Positions 1-21,318 of a stretch of DNA of 64,000 bases are shown here, piece by piece. The position numbers and the translations under genes were made by a program. Within the stretch, counting starts at the first letter, position 1, and each line of letters opens with the position of its first letter. The notes beneath the pieces were generated by a model. That model ran no database searches, was not told where the DNA came from, and saw nothing but the letters and a program-made list of their open reading frames with translations. This stretch comes from an uncultured Nitrososphaeraceae archaeon (GTDB lineage Archaea > Thermoproteota > Nitrososphaeria > Nitrososphaerales > Nitrososphaeraceae): assembly GCA_963837175.1 (NCBI GenBank), contig CAWIMJ010000050.1, forward strand, positions 320,001-384,000, in the 5' to 3' direction.

Positions 1-865
1 GATTGTATAGAGGAATCATTAATCTTCTCAATCCATGCCACAGAGTGTTGAGATCTCTAGCCCAGATTGCTTCAATGTAGCTTTCGCCACGCACCATTTT
101 TATCATAAATTTTTCTTTTTTTACTTTTCCGCCTAATGCCCCGTCTTCTACAAGCTCATATCTAACTGCTTTATGGGTACCTACCTTTTCATAGGTGCTT
201 CTAGTTATTATGAAAAAACTACCAAAGAAGTATCCTATTTTTGTCTTGGGATCATTTACTCGTAGAGCAGAAAATCGACTATGTAAAAAAGTTGAGAGCA
301 TCGGTAATGTGATTTTAGTCCAAAAGTCTTTAGATAGAAGCTTTGGTATAGCAGTTAGGGCATCTAGATTCTCAAAAATCAAATGCTTAATAGACAATGA
401 CATTGTAGAAGGGAGATGTACAGTATCCGCATCTGTAAAAAGAAGCAAATCACCTCGTGCTCTCAGATAGCCTTGAAAACATGCCCAATTTTTCCCTGCC
501 CATCCCTCCGGCTTAGATTTCGCATGAACAACTAGAATTCTAGGATCTTTTGCTGCGTATTGCTGCATTATGACTCCAGTCCCATCTGTTGACGAATCGT
601 TGACTGCAATAATCTCAAAATTTGGATAGTCTTGATTTATTAAACTATCTAAACATTTTGCGATATATTTTTCTTCATTTCGAGCAGGTAAAATTATGCT
701 AACTTTAGGGAAATTTCTAATATTGGCTGATTTATCATAAGAATCTAACATCGGAGATTGTTTCAAAGATTTTAATACATAGACAATAAGGTATATCCAT
801 GTAGCAAGAATTCCAAACGAAATAGCAGTTAATAACGAGTTGATTATAGAGAGAATTATTTCCAT
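1..865 (-). CDS. Family 2 glycosyltransferase with N-terminal TM helix; 3' end runs off the window
   Basis: Not in ORF track. Manual translation from ATG at 865: MEIILSIINSLLTAISFGILATWIYL...VSIILPARNEEKYIAKCLDSLINQDYPNFEIIAVNDSSTDGT...GWAGKNWAC...LLFTDADT (GT-A DxD motif). Confidence 0.9.
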   Translation of the reverse strand, partial: MEIILSIINSLLTAISFGILATWIYLIVYVLKSLKQSPMLDSYDKSANIRNFPKVSIILPARNEEKYIAKCLDSLINQDYPNFEIIAVNDSSTDGTGVIMQQYAAKDPRILVVHAKSKPEGWAGKNWACFQGYLRARGDLLLFTDADTVHLPSTMSLSIKHLIFENLDALTAIPKLLSKDFWTKITLPMLSTFLHSRFSALRVNDPKTKIGYFFGSFFIITRSTYEKVGTHKAVRYELVEDGALGGKVKKEKFMIKMVRGESYIEAIWARDLNTLWHGLRRLMIPLYN

Positions 866-1011
866 GAAAGATCTCTAGCATGGTTATCAACGATTATACA
901 TATACATTCGCCTTTGATTATTGAAGAGCAGGTAATCGTAATCTATGAATTTCTATCGCTCCTTCTCTAAAAGGAAAACTAATTTTAATAGGAATCTTAA
1001 TTTGTAGCCTT

Positions 1012-1368
1012 ATGAGTAGCTCTGAAGAAGCAGAAGATGATCATTATATCACATTTGAAGACTTTTCGAAAATGCATTTGAAAATTGGTAAAATTATTCA
1101 TGTAGAAAATATCCCAGGGATGAAAAAAGTCTTAAAAGCCATAGTGGATATTGGAATAGATCGAAGAACTATCATAGTCGGCGCGGCAATTTTTTATAAA
1201 CCGGAGGAATTAATCGGCAAAGTCGTAGTTATTTGTACAAATATGGAGCCGCGTAAAATTGGCAATATAATTTCTAACGGAATGTTATTGGCGGCAGATG
1301 GATCTGATGGAAAACCTATCTTTCTCACAATAAATGAAGAAGCTCCAATAGGTGCGAATATTCATTAG
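1012..1368 (+). CDS. tRNA-binding OB-fold protein (Trbp111/CsaA/MetRS C-terminal-like)
   Basis: ITFEDFSKMHLKIGKI...NMEPRKIGNIISNGMLLAA signature. Confidence 0.9.
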   Translation: MSSSEEAEDDHYITFEDFSKMHLKIGKIIHVENIPGMKKVLKAIVDIGIDRRTIIVGAAIFYKPEELIGKVVVICTNMEPRKIGNIISNGMLLAADGSDGKPIFLTINEEAPIGANIH

Positions 1369-1408
1369 AATGTTTAACTATTTTCCTGCAGGAATTGAGA
1401 AAGTCATT

Positions 1409-2305
1409 TTATGAGTGTACTTCCTCTGTATCCATTCCGTTTATTCTAGCCGTAAATGCAGTCACTGCTGTATAATCCAGCTCCGAATATCCCATGTTAT
1501 TTGTTACTCTATAGATCTGTTGAGCAAGAGAAGTAAGAGGTAAAGATACTCCTATGCATTGTGATGTACTTGTGGTAAGTTCTAGGTCTTTAAGCATATT
1601 TTTTAGATAAAAAGAGGGTTGAAAATCATTCTTTACCATTTTTGGGCCTTTGTTTTTGCTAATTCCTGTCTTAAAATAAGTAGCATTAATAATTTTAATA
1701 AAGATTTTAGGGTTTATACTAGCAGCCTTGACTAAAGTTATACCCTCAGACATTGCGCCAGCTATTAGCGCTATGTTCAAGTTCAGAGCCAATTTAACAA
1801 CATTAGCTGATCCATCATCCTCTCCAATGTAAAAAACTGAGTTTGCCAATTTGTCAATGATTGGTTTGACTTTCAGAAATGCGCCTTTAGGACCTGAAAC
1901 CATATGCACTAATTCGCCTTTTTCTGCTGCCATCGGGCCGCCCATTACCGGCATCGCAATAAAATCTATCTGCTTTTGCCTAAGTCGGTCAGCACAATAC
2001 TTTGATTGCTCAGGAGAGATGGTACTTGAATTTGCTATAATTAGCTGCTTCCGACCAGCCGCTATGATACCATTCTTGCCAAAGCATACCTCTTTTACTG
2101 CATCGAAGTCTGTAACACATATTAAAATAAAATCACAATTCAAAGCAACATCTCTGGGAGTTTTCAGTATCATACTTCTGGTTTTGGCAAATGGTCTAGT
2201 TTTTACCATATCACGGTTATAAACACATATCTGATGGCCTGTATTGAGTAATCTAATCGCCATCCGTGATCCCATCAATCCAAGCCCAATCACACCGATT
2301 CTCAT
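1409..2305 (-). CDS. NAD(P)-dependent beta-hydroxyacid dehydrogenase (3-hydroxyisobutyrate/6-phosphogluconate DH family)
   Basis: MRIGVIGLGLMG Rossmann motif, PVMGG, KLALN; ATG at 2305 preferred over the ORF-track start 2320. Confidence 0.9.
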   Translation of the reverse strand: MRIGVIGLGLMGSRMAIRLLNTGHQICVYNRDMVKTRPFAKTRSMILKTPRDVALNCDFILICVTDFDAVKEVCFGKNGIIAAGRKQLIIANSSTISPEQSKYCADRLRQKQIDFIAMPVMGGPMAAEKGELVHMVSGPKGAFLKVKPIIDKLANSVFYIGEDDGSANVVKLALNLNIALIAGAMSEGITLVKAASINPKIFIKIINATYFKTGISKNKGPKMVKNDFQPSFYLKNMLKDLELTTSTSQCIGVSLPLTSLAQQIYRVTNNMGYSELDYTAVTAFTARINGMDTEEVHS

Positions 2306-2876
2306 AGTAAAAGAGATCAATTTATAGACGAATAAAAATTCTCACCATAAAGCAATAATACTCTACATTTGATATAGCGTGTTTTTTAAATGTTCAAGGC
2401 AGATTAAGATGTAATCATTCTCTCTGATCTGAATCTCCCGTTTAGTATTTTTCTTTTCAACATTCCTAGATATTATTAGATCAAGTTTTAGGGAGAATGT
2501 AATAATAATAATAATAATACGATCCTTGAGATGGATATATTCCCTTAGCAAGAAATGTGCGAATTTTCAGAACAATTCTGCAATTTTTATCTAATACTTA
2601 TGGCAAGGTATAGGCCGGTTTCTACCGATAGTGATAAACCCTGCTATGATCCTTAAGAAGCATTGTGAAGAACCACTAAGTGTATCAAGGTTAATTGAGA
2701 ATTTTGATGATTTATTCCTCATCTGTTGATAAATTGTACAATTAAATCATCTCTAAATTGATTCAATCTATTATTGACAATTACTATTAAGAGGATCTTT
2801 TTTAGGTTAACAGCCATCTGATTGATTTAGTCGTATGCTCGAGAAATTGATGACAAGAGAAAAGATTAGCATTTTA

Positions 2877-3887
2877 TTATCTCTTTACTGTTGTGCTATT
2901 AACGTTTGCTCCTTGTTCTCCCATTGGAATTTGTATAAACGGAGTAGTACCTGCACTACCACTACCACCACCAGTTACCAGAGGCAATTTACCATCCCAT
3001 CTCTGAGTCTTTAACCATTCTAAATAAGTTGGACTAGTTCGTAGTTGTTGGTCAATTATCTTAATTGCCTGAGATTCTCCTTCAGCTTGTAAAACATTTG
3101 CCTGTCTTATACCATCGGCTCTAGCTACGTTAGCTTTTTGTTCTCCTACCGCTTTTGCTTCATTCTGTTGTGCCTCTATTTCTATCCTTCTCAAGTCATT
3201 TTGTGCTTGTAACGCTCTCTGCTGAGCTTCAACTTTTGCTTCAACTGCTTTTCTAAATTGATCTGAAAATTGGAACTCTGTTATAGATATGGTATCAACT
3301 ACGATATTATAGGGAGCTAGTCTTGATTTGATCTGTTCTTCTATTTGGTTCTTTACAGTTTCTCTCTTTGTAATGAGTTCTTCTGCATTGAATCTAGCAG
3401 TTACTTGTTTAACAGACTCTTGAATTGCTGGAGCAATTACTCTATTACCATATTCAAAACCTAATTGTTGGTAAACAACTTGTGCCCTATCCGGATTTAT
3501 ACGATAATTTAGTGCAACTTGTGTAGTGACATCCTGCAAATCTTTTGATGCTGAAGCAGCATTTTCAACTGTCTTTTGGGTTCTCACTTCCATTTGAATT
3601 ACGCTATCACGAAAAGGTGTTACAAAGTGTATTCCTTCATTTAATGATACACTTGTGTCTACAGCACCAAATTTTAATAAAACACCTCTATATCCTGCAT
3701 CAACTATCTTTACACTGGCACTAACTATAAATAATAATATTATAATGCCTATTATAGCAGGGATTACTATTCGAACAAATGGATTTGACAATCGTCCTCC
3801 CTGTTCAACATTTTCAAGCGGCTCTCCTTCAGGAGTAGTTCTTCTTCGTTCATAAGGCGATCCAGAGCGCCGAAATGGATTTCTCAC
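2877..3887 (-). CDS. Prohibitin/SPFH (band 7) membrane protein
   Basis: N-terminal TM helix, AGYRGVLLKFG, ASKDLQDV, coiled coil AVEAKVEAQQRA, WDGKLP. Confidence 0.92.
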   Translation of the reverse strand: MRNPFRRSGSPYERRRTTPEGEPLENVEQGGRLSNPFVRIVIPAIIGIIILLFIVSASVKIVDAGYRGVLLKFGAVDTSVSLNEGIHFVTPFRDSVIQMEVRTQKTVENAASASKDLQDVTTQVALNYRINPDRAQVVYQQLGFEYGNRVIAPAIQESVKQVTARFNAEELITKRETVKNQIEEQIKSRLAPYNIVVDTISITEFQFSDQFRKAVEAKVEAQQRALQAQNDLRRIEIEAQQNEAKAVGEQKANVARADGIRQANVLQAEGESQAIKIIDQQLRTSPTYLEWLKTQRWDGKLPLVTGGGSGSAGTTPFIQIPMGEQGANVNSTTVKR

Positions 3888-4410
3888 AAATCAATTACTG
3901 TATGAAACCGCATTTAAATTTTTTATTCTGAATCATGATTCTAATCTTGGTGGCAACGAATCTAAGATAATGAGGTTTTAAAATGTATGATATTTTTCGC
4001 TTTTTATAGAAAGGAGGGAGGGATAAACTGAAATAAGAGGGCATCAGGAAAAATAAAAATACAAAATTAAAACATTTCATTCATTGCTGATCACAATATA
4101 CATTTAAAGAAAATAATTTATAAACTAAATCTGAAATTACTCTCCATTATGATTAGTTATCATTCATTACAATTTAAAGATAGCAGCAGTCTTGAACACG
4201 AAATCCTTGAAATTTTACTCACGGTTAGTAGCAGTGGAATAATCTAAAACATCCTATTTGTCTTAATAGCAACAATTGATGACAATCATCAAGCATATTT
4301 TAGAAGCAAAATATATCTATCATTTTCATAATAATTTCTATTTTTCAAAACTTAGTCGTTTAATATTTCCCGTTTATTTGTATGAAGAATTGTTGATACA
4401 ATTGAACGAT

Positions 4411-4782
4411 TTATCTCTTTCCATTCACCAATTCGAGTGTATCTATTGCAATATCCATGACAGTATGCGGATCAACATTTGGTTCTATAGATACAACAAG
4501 TATATTTTTATCCATATAGAATGTTAACATTGAAATCTTTTCGCGTTCTACGTATGCAAATCGTGCTTTTCCCATTGTGTTATCAAATCTCTGTCTCATC
4601 GACTTTCGGATAGCTGTCTGCGCCAGATATAATTCATCATTATCCTGTTCTGTCATGGAATCAAGACCTTTACGCATGCCTCCAGCAAGTAATATACCAG
4701 TATCATCTATAATCCCAGCATAACGTATGTCATCATGTAATGCGAAGACTTCTTCGCATAGCTTTGTAAAATCCATAATCAT
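4411..4782 (-). CDS. Small roadblock/profilin-like protein of an expanded thaumarchaeal family
   Basis: LCEEVFALHDDIRYAGIID..G.LLAGGMRKG...FDNTMGKARFAYVEREKI pattern. Confidence 0.7.
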   Translation of the reverse strand: MIMDFTKLCEEVFALHDDIRYAGIIDDTGILLAGGMRKGLDSMTEQDNDELYLAQTAIRKSMRQRFDNTMGKARFAYVEREKISMLTFYMDKNILVVSIEPNVDPHTVMDIAIDTLELVNGKR

Positions 4783-4994
4783 GTAATGAGAAATTTAACA
4801 TATAAAGAGATAGCTTTTTGTCTAATTGCATCTAATTATGTAGAGCTTAAAACATCGTGGCTCGTACATACAATTGGAAATATTTACAATTATAATTTTT
4901 GCAGTTATTGTAACCCATCTTTCGCGATTGCTTTAGTGAAGTGGTAGAAGCATTAGAGTTCTCTTTGTCTTTTGAACAAAGGTTGATAAAGTCA

Positions 4995-5300
4995 CTACCT
5001 TCTCATATTATAGAGTTTATTGATGATACTTGCTAATTTGAAGTCATAATTGCTAATTCCGTTCACGTCGTGTGTTACCAATTCAATTTTTATACGATTG
5101 TAAACGTTGAACCATTCTGGATGATGATTAATTTTTTCAGCCTCAATTGCTATTTCTGTCATGAAACCAAATGCCTGAACAAAGTTATCAAATTCAAGCG
5201 TCCTATTTAATTTGCCATTTTCGATTATCCAATCGGGATTTTTGCCAATCTCTTTTTTGATTTCCTCGTCAGACAACTTTTTGTATTCTTCTTCAGACAT
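4995..5300 (-). CDS. Pterin-4a-carbinolamine dehydratase
   Basis: AEKINHHPEWFNVYN...THD motif. Confidence 0.93.
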   Translation of the reverse strand: MSEEEYKKLSDEEIKKEIGKNPDWIIENGKLNRTLEFDNFVQAFGFMTEIAIEAEKINHHPEWFNVYNRIKIELVTHDVNGISNYDFKLASIINKLYNMRR

Positions 5301-5820
5301 ATTCTATCCATATAATCTCACGTATAAAAGAAGCATGGTTGTCTTCAAAATTAACCATAAGATGAAGGTATAAAGGATCTTACATTATCTAATCGATATT
5401 CAAACAAATATAGAATGTGACGAATTCTTGTATTAGAATATTAATACTATTAGCATAATTTAGTGTGCATAATAAAAATTTCTAAATTTCAGTATTTGCG
5501 ATTCAACTGACTTTTATATTATCCAAATTTATGAATGCTTCATAATTTACCTAATATTATCCATATCGCCTATTATTTCATCAATAAATTATAAAAAAAC
5601 TCTTGAGGAGGCAAAACCAATCGTGGTTAACAAATAGAGGATTGTACCGCATACCCGTAAGTATGTTACAAAGTCATTGGATTTCATCATTATCACTTGC
5701 AAAATAGGGAATGAGTGTGTAATCCTAGTAAGATACGATTCAAACACTGCCGTTTTGATAAAGTGCAAAGGAAATTATAAAAGAATAAAGGAGAAGATTT
5801 GATTAACAAAGGTAAATAAT

Positions 5821-17572: not shown

Positions 17573-18649
17573 ATGTCAGATATTATATCATGGGACAAAG
17601 CTATTGACAAAAAAGTAAAGTCAAGTGATAACCAAGATATAGGTAAAGTTCAAAGTATTACAAAGGATTATATTCAAACAAAAGAAGGAACGGTAGCCAA
17701 AAAATATTATTTTATTCCTAAGTATTATTTTCAAGGATATGACGGTGATAATTTATGGGTTTCATTAACCAAAGATCAAATAAAGGCTAAATTTGAGAGA
17801 GAAAAAGAACCTGAGCCTGGTGAGTTACAAACACCCGAGTATGCAGAAAGAAGAACAGCAATTACTAAACAGTATCCTGATTTTGATAGTAATATTCCCC
17901 AATATGCTTCTCCATCTACTTTATCGCCTACGACTTCCTCTACTACTACTGCTGCAGATGACAGTGTTGGTATGCCGTGGGATAAAATTATCGATAAAAA
18001 AGTTAAATCAAGTGACAACCAAGATTTGGGAAAGGTGCAAAGCGTTGCTGCTAATTACATCGAAGCACAAGAAGGCCATCTAAGCAAGAAACGCTACTAT
18101 ATACCTAAACATTATATCCAAGGATTCGACGGCGAGCATTTGCACGCGGCATTAACTAAGGACGAAATAAAAAGTCGTTATGAAAGAGATGCTCCTCCAT
18201 CCGAATCAGAATTTCAGAATCAAGAGAAAACTGAACAAAATCTTCGACAGGGGTCTGCTTCTCCGAAGTCTGTTGAGGGAATACCGTTGATGGCTAAGGA
18301 GCCAGGGCTTGAGCTTCGCGGAGAATATTCAGGTAAATCAGTCAATATTCCATGGGAGGAGGTTATCCATAAACATGTACTCACAAGCGATAACGTTGAC
18401 ATAGGAGAAGTAGATAGAGTAGGAAATGAGTATATAGTAGTTAGAGAAGGTGTGGTAAAGACTCATATCTATTATATTCCAAAAGTTTACATCACCAATT
18501 ATGATGGTAGTACACTTTGGATAAACGCTCCTAGTGGATTAGTAAGTGCTAAATTTGAACGAGAAACAGAGCCAACACCAGAAGACATTAAAAGGCTTGT
18601 AGATGAGGCAAAATCTAAGAGCGGCGCCACAGAGAAGTTTGAAAGCTAA
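17573..18649 (+). CDS. Protein of three tandem PRC-barrel-like repeats
   Basis: Three copies of W...I.K.V.SSDN.D.G.V......YI...EG......Y.IPK.Y....DG..L.........K.ER. Confidence 0.8.
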   Translation: MSDIISWDKAIDKKVKSSDNQDIGKVQSITKDYIQTKEGTVAKKYYFIPKYYFQGYDGDNLWVSLTKDQIKAKFEREKEPEPGELQTPEYAERRTAITKQYPDFDSNIPQYASPSTLSPTTSSTTTAADDSVGMPWDKIIDKKVKSSDNQDLGKVQSVAANYIEAQEGHLSKKRYYIPKHYIQGFDGEHLHAALTKDEIKSRYERDAPPSESEFQNQEKTEQNLRQGSASPKSVEGIPLMAKEPGLELRGEYSGKSVNIPWEEVIHKHVLTSDNVDIGEVDRVGNEYIVVREGVVKTHIYYIPKVYITNYDGSTLWINAPSGLVSAKFERETEPTPEDIKRLVDEAKSKSGATEKFES

Positions 18650-19073: not shown

Positions 19074-19250
19074 TTATTGGGTAAGATCAATAATGCTGTT
19101 TCTGATAATCAATTTTGCCTCTGGCGAAATATTATACCGCTCAAGTACTTTTGTCGGTTCCTTTACAAGTACGTTCCTAAATTCTGGTTCACTAGCAGCT
19201 TTTAGCAGAATTTCGCTAATGACCTCAGCGTCCTTCTGTCGATTATGCAA
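19074..19250 (-). CDS. 58-aa NHLP (nitrile hydratase-like leader peptide)-clan protein; candidate YcaO/TfuA precursor or partner
   Basis: Not in ORF track (<60 aa). TTG start; MHNRQKDAEVISEILLKAASEPEFRNVLVKEPTKVLERYNISPEAKLIIRNSIIDLTQ*, matching the leader pattern ii.kA..DpeFR..Ll.dP..vL..y.i; TATA box at the canonical distance. Confidence 0.8.
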   Translation of the reverse strand: MHNRQKDAEVISEILLKAASEPEFRNVLVKEPTKVLERYNISPEAKLIIRNSIIDLTQ

Positions 19251-19275
19251 TTAACAAAACGTTTACAAAATCTGC

Positions 19276-19282
19276 TATATAA
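19276..19282 (-). promoter_or_regulatory. Archaeal TATA box (TTATATA) for the 58-aa gene, within the 84-bp divergent spacer shared with ycaO
   Basis: Lies 26-32 nt upstream of the TTG at 19250, typical spacing for a leaderless archaeal transcript. Confidence 0.6.
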
Positions 19283-19334
19283 TCCTAATGCATAATTCGG
19301 AAACTTGATATGAACTAATTTATGGGTTTCATCT

Positions 19335-20660
19335 ATGATTATAGGAGAGTTACGTCTTCAACCGAGGCAGAAATGGACCATTAACGGTACATCGAGAATA
19401 AGCCCTCCTCAAGAAATCCTGAAGAGAATTACTTCTATATCACGAAAGATAGGAGTCACCAGACTTGCTGATATCACTAACATGGATATACTTGGCATTC
19501 CAAATTATTCAGCGGTTCTACCAGGGACTGAAGATTATATATGGGTTTATAGTGGCAAAGGCTCCACTAAGGCTCATGCTAGAGCCAGTGCTCTGATGGA
19601 ATCTATAGAGCGATATTCCTCGCTTCCAAGCGGTGGCCCAAAAAATTTTATCCAAGGCAGCTATGATCAACTATCAAAGTCATTTACAGTTCTTCATCCA
19701 GACAAACTTTTAGAACCAGTTAGATTTCAATATACTAATGACATGCCAATGGATTTTCTTCCTGGTTTTGATCTATTTACAAATGAACAGATATTGGTAC
19801 CGGCATCAATAGCATTATTTCGTTATTCTCCCGTCCCTCCTTTTGTTAATCCCTTTGCATTTCATCATACAAATGGACTTGCATCTGGTAACGTACTAGA
19901 GGAAGCTATTTGTCATTCATTATGTGAGGTGATAGAGCGCGATGCAACCAGTTTGGCTGAACTACGTGCCAGTGCTATCCCTTTTCATTTTTTACGACAC
20001 ATCACAAATACGCTGAAGGCAAAAGGGTATGCGCTAAACTCTATTCCTACAGATAAATATGTGGACGATCCTAATATATTTCCTGATGTAAATATTTCAC
20101 AGATTGAATTTCAACCAGTTAAAGCTTTAGCAAAAAAATTTCTACAATCCAAAATTCCCTTGATTATTAAGGACATTACATCGGACATTGGAATTCCGAC
20201 ATTTAACGCTAGCAGTATCGAATGGATAAGCCATGATTATGGTTATCTTGCCGAAGGGCATGGAACACATCCTGATGCACGTATTGCATTATTGCGTGCT
20301 ATAACAGAGGTATCACAAACTAGAGCCGCTAACATTCAAGGTGCAAGAGATGATCTCCGAAAAATCAAATACGGACAAAACAATACAAATGATAAACGTG
20401 CATGGCAATTTATGCAGTCAGATAAAAACGTAAAATTTTCTGAGATTGCTACGTATTTTAACCAAGATATTCTTGATGATATCAAGTTGATTCTAGAACA
20501 TCTAAAACAGATTGGATTAAAGAGAGCCATCATCGTAAATTTAACTAACGATAGCATTGGAATCCCTGTTGTAAGGGCAGTAGTACCTGGCCTTGAGACT
20601 TTCAAAATCACAAAATCTATCATGGGTTGGCGAGCAAGAAGGTATTTTAAAAATGAATAA
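19335..20660 (+). CDS. ycaO: YcaO-family ATP-dependent amide kinase (TfuA-associated, thioamide-forming type)
   Basis: IGVTRLADIT, GKG...ASALMESIERYS, TNGLASGNVLEEA...EVIERDA, RAITEVSQTR, VPGLE; no C-terminal PxP tail typical of azoline-forming YcaOs. Confidence 0.95.
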   Translation: MIIGELRLQPRQKWTINGTSRISPPQEILKRITSISRKIGVTRLADITNMDILGIPNYSAVLPGTEDYIWVYSGKGSTKAHARASALMESIERYSSLPSGGPKNFIQGSYDQLSKSFTVLHPDKLLEPVRFQYTNDMPMDFLPGFDLFTNEQILVPASIALFRYSPVPPFVNPFAFHHTNGLASGNVLEEAICHSLCEVIERDATSLAELRASAIPFHFLRHITNTLKAKGYALNSIPTDKYVDDPNIFPDVNISQIEFQPVKALAKKFLQSKIPLIIKDITSDIGIPTFNASSIEWISHDYGYLAEGHGTHPDARIALLRAITEVSQTRAANIQGARDDLRKIKYGQNNTNDKRAWQFMQSDKNVKFSEIATYFNQDILDDIKLILEHLKQIGLKRAIIVNLTNDSIGIPVVRAVVPGLETFKITKSIMGWRARRYFKNE

Positions 20661-21318
20661 GCCTATAATATTTCTAGGTCCTAGCCTGAACCACGAGAGA
20701 GCAAGACAAATCTTTCAAGCTGATTTTAGAGGACCCGCAAAAAAGGGCGATCTCTTAAGAATTTCAAGTGTTGTAGATGATACAACGATAGTCTGCCTAG
20801 TAGACGCATTATTTCTCCAAGATTATCCTCCTTCTCCAATAGAAGTCTATCAACTGATGCTAAATAAAAATATAAAACTATTTGGAGCAGCAAGTCTTGG
20901 TGCATTGCGTGCAGTTGAGCTCGAAAAATTTGGAATGATTGGGATCGGAAAAATTTTTGAACTTTATAAGAAAGGCAAACTAACTGCTGATGACGAAGTA
21001 GCAGTTACCTTCACAGAGGGTGAGCACCAACTCCAGTCTGAGGCAATGATAGATATTCGATTTAATTTATTTTTGGCATATAGAAATGGAATAATTAATG
21101 AAATTACAAAAAAAACAGTAGCTAAAGTAGCCAAAAGTATCTATTTTCCATACAGGAATTATATCGATATCCTTGACCAAACAGAAAAGCACTATCCTGC
21201 GATAGCCGACGATCTGAAACTATTTCGAACTTATATTATCAAAAATAGGCAAAGTCTGAAGGAGCGCGATACAATAAAACTAATTAATTATGTAAAGAAG
21301 CTTTTCATTGAATCTTAA
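20653..21318 (+). CDS. tfuA: TfuA-like protein
   Basis: IFLGPSL, PAKKGDL, GAASLGALRAVEL..FGMIGIGKIF, DDEVAV; ATG at 20653 overlaps the end of ycaO. Confidence 0.93.
   Translation: MNKPIIFLGPSLNHERARQIFQADFRGPAKKGDLLRISSVVDDTTIVCLVDALFLQDYPPSPIEVYQLMLNKNIKLFGAASLGALRAVELEKFGMIGIGKIFELYKKGKLTADDEVAVTFTEGEHQLQSEAMIDIRFNLFLAYRNGIINEITKKTVAKVAKSIYFPYRNYIDILDQTEKHYPAIADDLKLFRTYIIKNRQSLKERDTIKLINYVKKLFIES

Follow-up and report, generated by a model that had tools for sequence, protein, structure and literature searches.

What do ammonia-oxidising archaea modify with the enzyme pair YcaO and TfuA? The question is raised by a locus in a stretch of 64,000 nucleotides (hereafter the window) from an uncultured Nitrososphaeraceae archaeon (GenBank assembly GCA_963837175.1, contig CAWIMJ010000050.1, positions 320,001 to 384,000 of the forward strand), in which overlapping ycaO and tfuA genes lie head-to-head with an open reading frame (ORF) of 58 codons, the product of which we refer to as the mini-protein. 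YcaO activates a backbone amide with ATP, followed by attack of sulfide (PMC8120280), and where habitat sulfide is not high, sulfide equivalents are supplied by TfuA together with a ThiS-type thiocarboxylate (PMC13063428). Homologs of the pair in ammonia-oxidising archaea were noted in 2017, with the YcaOs placed in the same clade as those of methanogens and methanotrophs (PMC5589413), and eight 'TfuA-related' clusters were counted in 2021 (PMC8120280); the passages concerned name no substrate in either case. A previous reading of the window from its letters alone (the sequence-only reading) proposed the small ORF as a leader peptide of the nitrile-hydratase-like type (NHLP), and as the obvious candidate substrate of a compact thioamidation system. 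As outlined below, the best explanation of the available data is that the window holds a three-gene module of terrestrial ammonia-oxidising archaea, consisting of an NHLP-clan mini-protein encoded divergently from overlapping ycaO-tfuA.

The ORF is a genuine conserved coding gene. Its translation is exactly that quoted in the sequence-only reading, and the accompanying description was equally accurate with respect to the 84-nt head-to-head gap to the ycaO ATG at 19335 and the presence of a TATA box at suitable spacing. The tfuA start overlaps the ycaO end by 8 nt. The sole usable start is a TTG with an in-frame TAA immediately before it (ORF listing with a floor of 40 aa), and both this TTG, at the identical codon, and a stop right after Q58 are kept in 19/19 orthologs from several genera. 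Summed over all pairs of orthologs, differences number 2018, 1168 and 4880 at the first, second and third codon position, respectively, with the third position dominant, and the synonymous to non-synonymous tally is 3283 to 2639 in frame, as compared to 553 to 5566 and 287 to 5693 in the two shifted frames. When 61 related genomes were searched in six frames, 41 of them yielded the mini-protein (E <= 1.4e-4), with the frame open every time. In the public protein collection we found 444 homologs, many labelled 'hypothetical protein' and one with a Candidatus Nitrososphaera gargensis locus tag; the longer database forms are N-terminal over-calls in ten out of ten cases, with a common C-terminus. 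Contrary to what had been claimed, the gene is thus not generally missed by gene callers, although it does fall under a 60-aa ORF threshold.

It could be argued that the frame is open by chance, or that the gene has nothing to do with ycaO-tfuA and is adjacent by accident, considering the small size of the ORF, its TTG start and its scores under the curated cut-offs of all family models. The coding signature, the start and stop retained by all 19 orthologs, the 444 database homologs, the divergent adjacency in most genomes and a phylogenetic distribution equal to that of YcaO-TfuA over 20 families (see below) however render this exceedingly improbable, and a chance open frame is in practice refuted by the coding signature together with the co-occurrence. 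As for a transcript, contigs from RNA libraries cover the ORF in three soil metatranscriptome studies (X4, X5 and X7) and in an unlabelled run (X1). In contigs of relatives, the similarity ends exactly at the mini-protein stop codon (position 19075), and 11 of the 13 variant positions within the ORF are third codon positions. In total, 24 RNA runs were found, each holding just small shares of the stretch (0.05-0.20). Being assembled contigs with possible DNA carry-over, which give no transcript ends, strand or expression level, these data are a hint that the ORF occurs in RNA libraries, and no more. Some relatives carry a second copy of the gene on another contig (G022:C279:124-294 and G029:C220:82-246, 69-71% identical to the query), which may represent a real paralog or strain heterogeneity within a metagenome bin.

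The mini-protein and the two enzymes go together across genomes. Among the 61 related genomes, which span 20 families (labelled f1, f4 and so forth), the mini-protein was found in 36/36 of f1, 2/2 of f4 and 2/2 of f9 (E <= 1.4e-4), and the 17 other families returned no match or weak ones only (best E 0.058). YcaO displays the same pattern (f1 36/36, f4 2/2, f9 2/2 and none in the 17 other families), as does TfuA (f1 35/36, f4 2/2, f9 2/2 and none elsewhere), the lone miss being attributable to a contig end. By a tally of coordinates, the mini-protein gene and ycaO are divergent with a gap of ~300 bp or less in 33 of the 41 genomes with both genes; three further genomes have them divergent at 0.5-1.6 kb and in two they are split over contig ends. 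Hence the gene co-occurs with ycaO-tfuA in relatives and mostly adjoins it, as anticipated from the window. In a wider sample of 401 genomes of the phylum, TfuA is also present in f27 (31/32) and f54, relatives bearing methyl-coenzyme M reductase (MCR), both of which are without the mini-protein (0/32 in f27), and neither mini-protein nor TfuA was found in the 56 genomes of f13. The MCR alpha model (PF02249) matched 4/4 tested genomes of the f27/f54 MCR lineages and both methanogen controls, but nothing in the window's genome (completeness 91.5%), congruent with the earlier premise that this lineage is without MCR. Thus, TfuA occurs with MCR and without the mini-protein in f27/f54, and with the mini-protein and without MCR here, so that within the phylum YcaO-TfuA accompanies either.

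Both enzymes are clear members of their superfamilies, with 242.7 bits for the window YcaO against PF02624 (cut-off 25.7) and 118.5 bits for TfuA, the gene of which overlaps ycaO, against PF07812 (cut-off 30). The nearest solved structure to the window YcaO is the thioamide-forming YcaO of M. jannaschii (6pe3/6peu, E 4.6e-38), and an AlphaFold2 (AF2) model adopts the YcaO fold (TMt 0.86-0.88 versus 6peu). The same enzyme pair in the same order, ycaO directly upstream of tfuA, constitutes the McrA Gly465 thioglycine system of methanogens and methanotrophs. The window nevertheless falls outside of that system: its genome is without MCR alpha, both enzymes score under the respective equivalog cut-offs (detailed below), the mini-protein is co-inherited here and absent from the MCR-bearing relatives, and the window YcaO harbors an insertion that MCR-linked enzymes lack. 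This insertion of 33-35 residues is present in 24/24 ammonia-oxidiser YcaOs and is a gap in 12/12 YcaOs from MCR-bearing relatives. The M. jannaschii enzyme is also without it, with window residues 213-261 standing opposite its residues 188-202. In the AF2 model, the insertion consists of two helices, one at 215-229 and a short one at 239-242, with a loop in between, and directly follows the active-site helix 188-212, bearer of the conserved E-x-x-E-R-D motif. The family-model scan revealed no match on the window YcaO to a family resembling the RiPP recognition element (RRE; RiPP, ribosomally synthesised peptide that is post-translationally modified). Three ThiS family matches exist in the window's genome, all of them outside the window.

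The similarity of the mini-protein to NHLPs, also part of the sequence-only reading, is borne out by profile searches. On its own, the window protein remains below the cut-offs, with 18.2 bits against TIGR03793 (cut-off 50.9, E 0.0017) and 17.1 bits against NF038399 (cut-off 40, E 0.0044). Its further weak single-sequence matches, TIGR04351, Frankia_peptide and NHase_alpha, all belong to the NHLP clan, and no family outside the clan was better than E 0.02 in the family-model scans. Among 26 members of the mini-protein family, 25 match NF038399 and 24 TIGR03793 at E <= 0.1 (best E 4.9e-6 and 4.7e-5, respectively), where only the window protein was compared with curated cut-offs and the other 25 are known by their E-values. 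An alignment of these 26, including distant lineages, has I14, A18, P22, F24, R25 and L36 invariant. In the PDB, matches to the family profile include alpha chains of nitrile hydratase (E 8.9e-8) and the NHLP leader chain 9cjx_A (E 0.0028), and in 1.84 billion protein representatives the profile returns 171 matches at E <= 0.001, those beyond the family itself being NHLP-clan precursors and tandem nitrile-hydratase-alpha-like proteins. Ten of these matches were scanned in turn, and all five precursor-like ones pass the NF038399 cut-off, and the two tandem ones pass that of TIGR03793. Finally, a profile-profile comparison (hhalign) of the family with 23 NF038399-type precursors yielded a probability of 99.0% (E 9.5e-18) across 44 columns, pairing mini-protein residues 8-51 with precursor residues 3-46 and leaving seven mini-protein residues thereafter. 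As judged by homology, the mini-protein is therefore established as an NHLP clan member, but one in which the last third of a leader has no counterpart. Leaders span 63-81 positions, and the mini-protein ends near position 53.

Structurally, AF2 predicts a compact fold of four helices (2-20, 22-30, 32-37 and 43-57; pLDDT 86.7, pTM 0.69). A fold search with this model against the PDB gave 0/68 matches at E <= 0.001, the domain being too small for such a search to decide; the proteusin precursor 8tb1 ranked no higher than 42nd (TMq 0.55, root-mean-square deviation (rmsd) 2.0 over 40 columns). Two separate observations concern the spread of the NHLP module. A C-terminal segment of the gallate dioxygenase DesB (PDB 3wku/3wr8, ~330-360) matches the mini-protein profile (E 0.0083) and superposes on the mini-protein model with an rmsd of 1.6 over 42 columns at 31% identity, hence an NHLP-like helical module is found also within an unrelated enzyme. 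Moreover, a subfamily of ~72-aa NF038399-type peptides with a conserved C-terminal D-I-R-(I/L/Y) represents another NHLP group with a short conserved C-terminus and no variable core (Table 1).

Does the mini-protein bind YcaO? We predicted the complex of YcaO, the mini-protein and ATP in three runs, with an alignment of 24 rows for each of the two proteins, alongside three controls. The complex scored 0.81 (runs 0.80, 0.81 and 0.82), the best of the three controls 0.02. In the calibration of the tool, the mark is reached by 58/80 solved complexes and 2/110 mismatched pairs, counts that apply just roughly here since own alignments and a ligand were included. At least 94% of the contacts are common to the runs, and the pLDDT of the partner is at least 87. 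The predicted interface pairs YcaO residues 216-247 and 438-440 with mini-protein residues 4-29 and 45-58, that is, the lineage-specific insertion with the invariant A-A-x-x-P-x-F-R region and the C-terminal helix of the mini-protein. All eight mini-protein residues 51-58 are located in this interface, beside the C-terminal helix of YcaO; the C-terminus of YcaO enzymes presumably lines the active site. A search for co-variation of the mini-protein tails with the YcaO insertion or C-terminus, performed on 24 pairs, uncovered no pattern beyond lineage. The structure prediction envisaged in the sequence-only reading supports binding of the mini-protein to YcaO. Taking all of the evidence together, we consider it very probable that the ammonia-oxidiser YcaO has in the mini-protein a physical partner dedicated to it.

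The predicted complex also bears on a more distant relationship, in which the genes are functionally linked only. The enzymes would then act on some other target, and the mini-protein might for example be a small regulator, serve as a chaperone or bind the product. Co-occurrence and synteny reveal a link and not its nature, and NHLP-like motifs do exist in non-precursor settings, as in the tandem nitrile-hydratase-alpha-like proteins, the gallate dioxygenase C-terminal segment and a fusion to an anti-sigma-factor antagonist domain (P0157). Yet the prediction is strong and well controlled, and places the mini-protein on an insertion specific to the lineage, and nothing in the 58 residues is suggestive of a DNA-binding or enzymatic function. 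We therefore regard such an indirect role as quite improbable.

Taken as a partner of YcaO, the mini-protein could act as follows. It would dock as a folded unit on the helix-loop insertion confined to ammonia-oxidiser YcaOs, via the invariant A-A-x-x-P-x-F-R helix region and its C-terminal helix. The C-terminal segment (~residues 50-58, ending I-I-D-L-T-Q in the window's genus) would then be offered to the YcaO active site, where the enzyme would use ATP to activate a backbone amide, and sulfide delivered via TfuA, originating from a ThiS-type thiocarboxylate, would turn the amide into a thioamide. The product would most likely be retained as an intact thioamidated mini-protein. For this proposal, that the mini-protein is the thioamidation substrate, with the modification somewhere among the final ~9 residues and the protein probably retained whole, we judge the balance to be even. 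As a side note, the mini-protein I-D-L-T-Q recalls the F-D-L-Q-D that follows thioGly465 of McrA in the sequence given in PMC5589413; the likeness covers three residues and part of the family, and is a lead rather than evidence.

Several observations weigh against the mini-protein being a thioamidated precursor-like substrate. A Gly-Gly site is the typical cleavage motif between an NHLP leader and its core; the mini-protein has neither such a site nor a separate core, and not a single Gly among residues 41-58. The C-terminal residues 43-57 form a packed helix in the AF2 model. The C-terminal tails vary by lineage (...SIIDLTQ, ...VIDDFR, ...YFDEIKNPAD, ...TIQGKEQL and ...TIRGMLTSN), with no single conserved modification site among them. 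No residue of the ATP/Mg site (E89/E92 and E198/E201 regions) is in the listed interface, and a catalytically competent pose is thus not apparent from these contacts. The mini-protein gene is unlinked from ycaO in 3/41 genomes, one of which is a complete chromosome, and no protease or exporter gene is consistently present near the module across relatives. On the enzyme side, the window YcaO reaches 284.4 bits against TIGR03266 (cut-off 365) and TfuA 197.9 bits against NF033432 (cut-off 235.2), although these are the top-scoring NCBIfam models for the two proteins. Aggregated, the match to the leader part only, the lack of a Gly-Gly site and core, and the compact fold indicate that this is not a typical leader-plus-core precursor. 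Of the RiPP precursor-like peptide suggested in the sequence-only reading, the NHLP homology and the position next to ycaO remain, and the full-length leader, cleavage motif and core are not found.

The same leader-only match and compact four-helix fold keep another interpretation alive, namely that the mini-protein is an unmodified stand-alone NHLP-type leader domain acting in trans. Bound to the YcaO insertion, it would be a permanent or regulatory subunit that activates YcaO or forms the recognition surface for a substrate encoded elsewhere. In its favour are the packing of the C-terminal helix on the rest of the predicted fold, the predicted docking in folded form with no active-site contacts listed in the interface, the conservation over the full length in the manner of a structural subunit, and the location of the gene apart from ycaO in 3/41 genomes. 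Furthermore, thioamide-forming YcaOs have two protein targets that are characterised, McrA and uL16, each of which is a large folded protein and is recognised directly (PMC13063428). On the other hand, no candidate second substrate with a matching phylogenetic distribution is known, no scan having been made for one, and the simplest partner with the exact distribution of YcaO-TfuA is the mini-protein itself. The location of all of residues 51-58 in the predicted interface, beside the YcaO C-terminal helix, also speaks against an adaptor, and we know of no precedent for a natural trans-acting leader among YcaO enzymes. We hence view the adaptor as a live, if somewhat unlikely, alternative, and as the main rival to the mini-protein as substrate.

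How does the module relate to known systems? NHLP-clan precursors (TIGR03793 and NF038399) share with the mini-protein a homologous N-terminal helical module with the A-x-x-(D/E)-P-x-F-R...L...P...L motif. Folded NHLP leaders such as MprE are bound by the YcaO cyclodehydratase MprC via protein-protein contacts (PMC12455567), and like these the mini-protein is a stably folded unit, as modelled, with its gene beside ycaO and predicted contacts of the same kind. In contrast to such precursors, the mini-protein aligns in 44 columns only and is without a Cys/Ser/Thr-rich core, its partner YcaO is of the TfuA type with a lineage-specific insertion as predicted docking site, and it belongs to the core genome, with high conservation in place of hypervariability.

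Bacterial TfuA-YcaO clusters for thioamide RiPPs (thioamitides, thiovarsolins and 'Network 7') likewise have a short precursor-like gene nearby, here on the opposite strand. For Actinobacteria, a predicted precursor network with nitrile hydratase domains, RiPPER 'Network 7', is described in PMC6511847. The window differs from these clusters by its archaeal host and the lack of a recognisable core. Moreover, the mini-protein is present in 36/36 genomes of f1 in housekeeping-like fashion, as opposed to the patchy occurrence of a secondary-metabolite cluster. Thioamitide-type clusters typically contain further tailoring, protease or export genes around ycaO-tfuA. None of these was detected among the five flanking ORFs scanned in the window, which encode a DUF2171 repeat protein, a zinc-ribbon protein, citrate synthase and two proteins without family match, and judging by these five the module would not be of the thioamitide type. 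The E. coli YcaO offers a parallel of a different kind, as it engages a folded protein, uL16, via an extended surface and not a short linear leader (PMC13063428); in our case the binding is predicted. That enzyme however works without TfuA on a ribosomal protein encoded elsewhere in the genome, and belongs to a different subfamily (33.1 bits for the window YcaO against NF040716, cut-off 700).

The 84-nt intergenic region contains two conserved blocks (Table 1). The TTG, the TATA block and the second block (CGnAAACTTGATATGAA, 19298-19315) are invariant in 12/12 aligned intergenic regions from several genera, with the positions CG.AA.CTTGATATG of the second block identical in all 12 sequences. 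The TATA block, which would be the promoter of the small gene, is spaced as for a transcript that is leaderless or nearly so. The second block may be an element resembling a transcription factor B recognition element (BRE) and TATA box that serves ycaO, or alternatively a regulator site. Together, the two blocks would represent the promoters of two divergent, leaderless or nearly leaderless transcripts.

Table 1. Positions of the features discussed, in window coordinates unless a locus or contig of a relative is named
Feature	Position	Strand	Remark
Mini-protein gene	19074..19250	(-)	58 aa; TTG start 19250; stop TAA 19074-19076
TATA-like block	19276..19282	(-)	TATATAA on plus strand; 26-33 nt upstream of mini-protein TTG
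Conserved block CGGAAACTTGATATGAAC	19298..19315	(+)	20-37 nt upstream of ycaO ATG
ycaO	19335..20660	(+)	441 aa; ATP-dependent backbone-amide-activating enzyme; stop TAA 20658-20660
YcaO insertion	19968..20084	(+)	~residues 212-250; confined to ammonia-oxidiser YcaOs; predicted docking surface
tfuA	20653..21318	(+)	221 aa from ATG 20653; 8-nt overlap with ycaO end
Stand-alone YcaO paralog, L058 (G005:C19)	2640-4040		
Stand-alone YcaO paralog, L059 (G017:C39)	2346-3764		
Stand-alone YcaO paralog, L060 (G032:C7)	2556-3980		
NF038399-type peptides ending D-I-R-(I/L/Y)			P0156, P0174, P0177, P0192, P0193, P0196, P0197, P0205, P0247, P0251

The surroundings of the module offer a number of further observations. 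Upstream in the window (17573-18649, plus strand) lies a gene for a 358-aa protein with three DUF2171-like repeats (PF09939, best repeat E 2.8e-14). In f9, a sodium/bile-acid symporter family gene (PF01758) is situated between ycaO and the mini-protein gene (L021 3496-4464 and L022 3306-4340, both minus strand); in none of the lineages was another transporter seen within the module. The unlinked mini-protein genes (L029 3941-4105, L031 3818-3991 and L017 1501-1668) occupy a conserved alternative neighbourhood, with a Na+/H+ exchanger gene (PF00999) on one side; on the other side, L029 and L031 have a gene for a ~330-aa secreted-looking protein without family match, which was not seen at L017. 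In one relative (G021, 5.0 Mb, 81% complete), the tfuA at G021:C60:154010-154669 carries seven in-frame stops (two TGA, four TAG and one TAA), whereas the adjoining ycaO and mini-protein genes are intact; the stops could mark a pseudogene or stem from a fault in the assembly.

In three relatives, we came across an additional YcaO paralog that stands alone (Table 1); it measures 466-474 aa and shares 55-63% identity with the window YcaO, and none was found in the window's genome. These paralogs have no tfuA and no NHLP-like ORF in their vicinity. Next to them are encoded between one and four proteins of ~200-240 aa, paralogous to each other and with the common N-terminal motif P-F-G-x-S-W...W-x-R-W-x-L...P-K...N-P. 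They may constitute a separate YcaO system with its own substrates.

Among the papers searched, we found none on the mini-protein, the YcaO insertion or a target in these archaea, bearing in mind that the supplements of PMC8120280 may list the ORF as a RiPPER candidate. What is new here is an archaeal YcaO system of the TfuA type with a core-less NHLP-clan partner and its own docking insertion. With the mini-protein as target or docking partner, it would be explained why ammonia oxidisers keep enzymes otherwise known from methane producers, and the question pending since 2017 now has a concrete, testable candidate in the form of a 58-residue protein, two enzymes and a specific docking element. 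Should the mini-protein serve as an adaptor and stay unmodified, nature would offer in it a leader that acts in trans, of interest to RiPP enzymology and engineering. Should it be modified, protein thioamidation would reach aerobic nitrifiers that are important in soil nitrogen cycling, and a YcaO would recognise an NHLP fold independently of an RRE. Tentatively, and with less confidence than for modification as such, we envision that soil and thermophilic ammonia-oxidising archaea make an intact thioamidated mini-protein for housekeeping purposes, with the YcaO insertion having evolved to grip a stand-alone NHLP fold. It is pure speculation, and improbable at present, that one or more C-terminal thioamides would confer a function in redox chemistry or with soft metals, for example in the handling of Cu(I), these organisms being dependent on copper. 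McrA and uL16 are the only characterised thioamidated proteins according to the passages on this subject in a 2026 paper (PMC13063428), and an intact thioamidated mini-protein would, if true, be the third natural class of thioamide protein, and the first in an aerobic archaeon.

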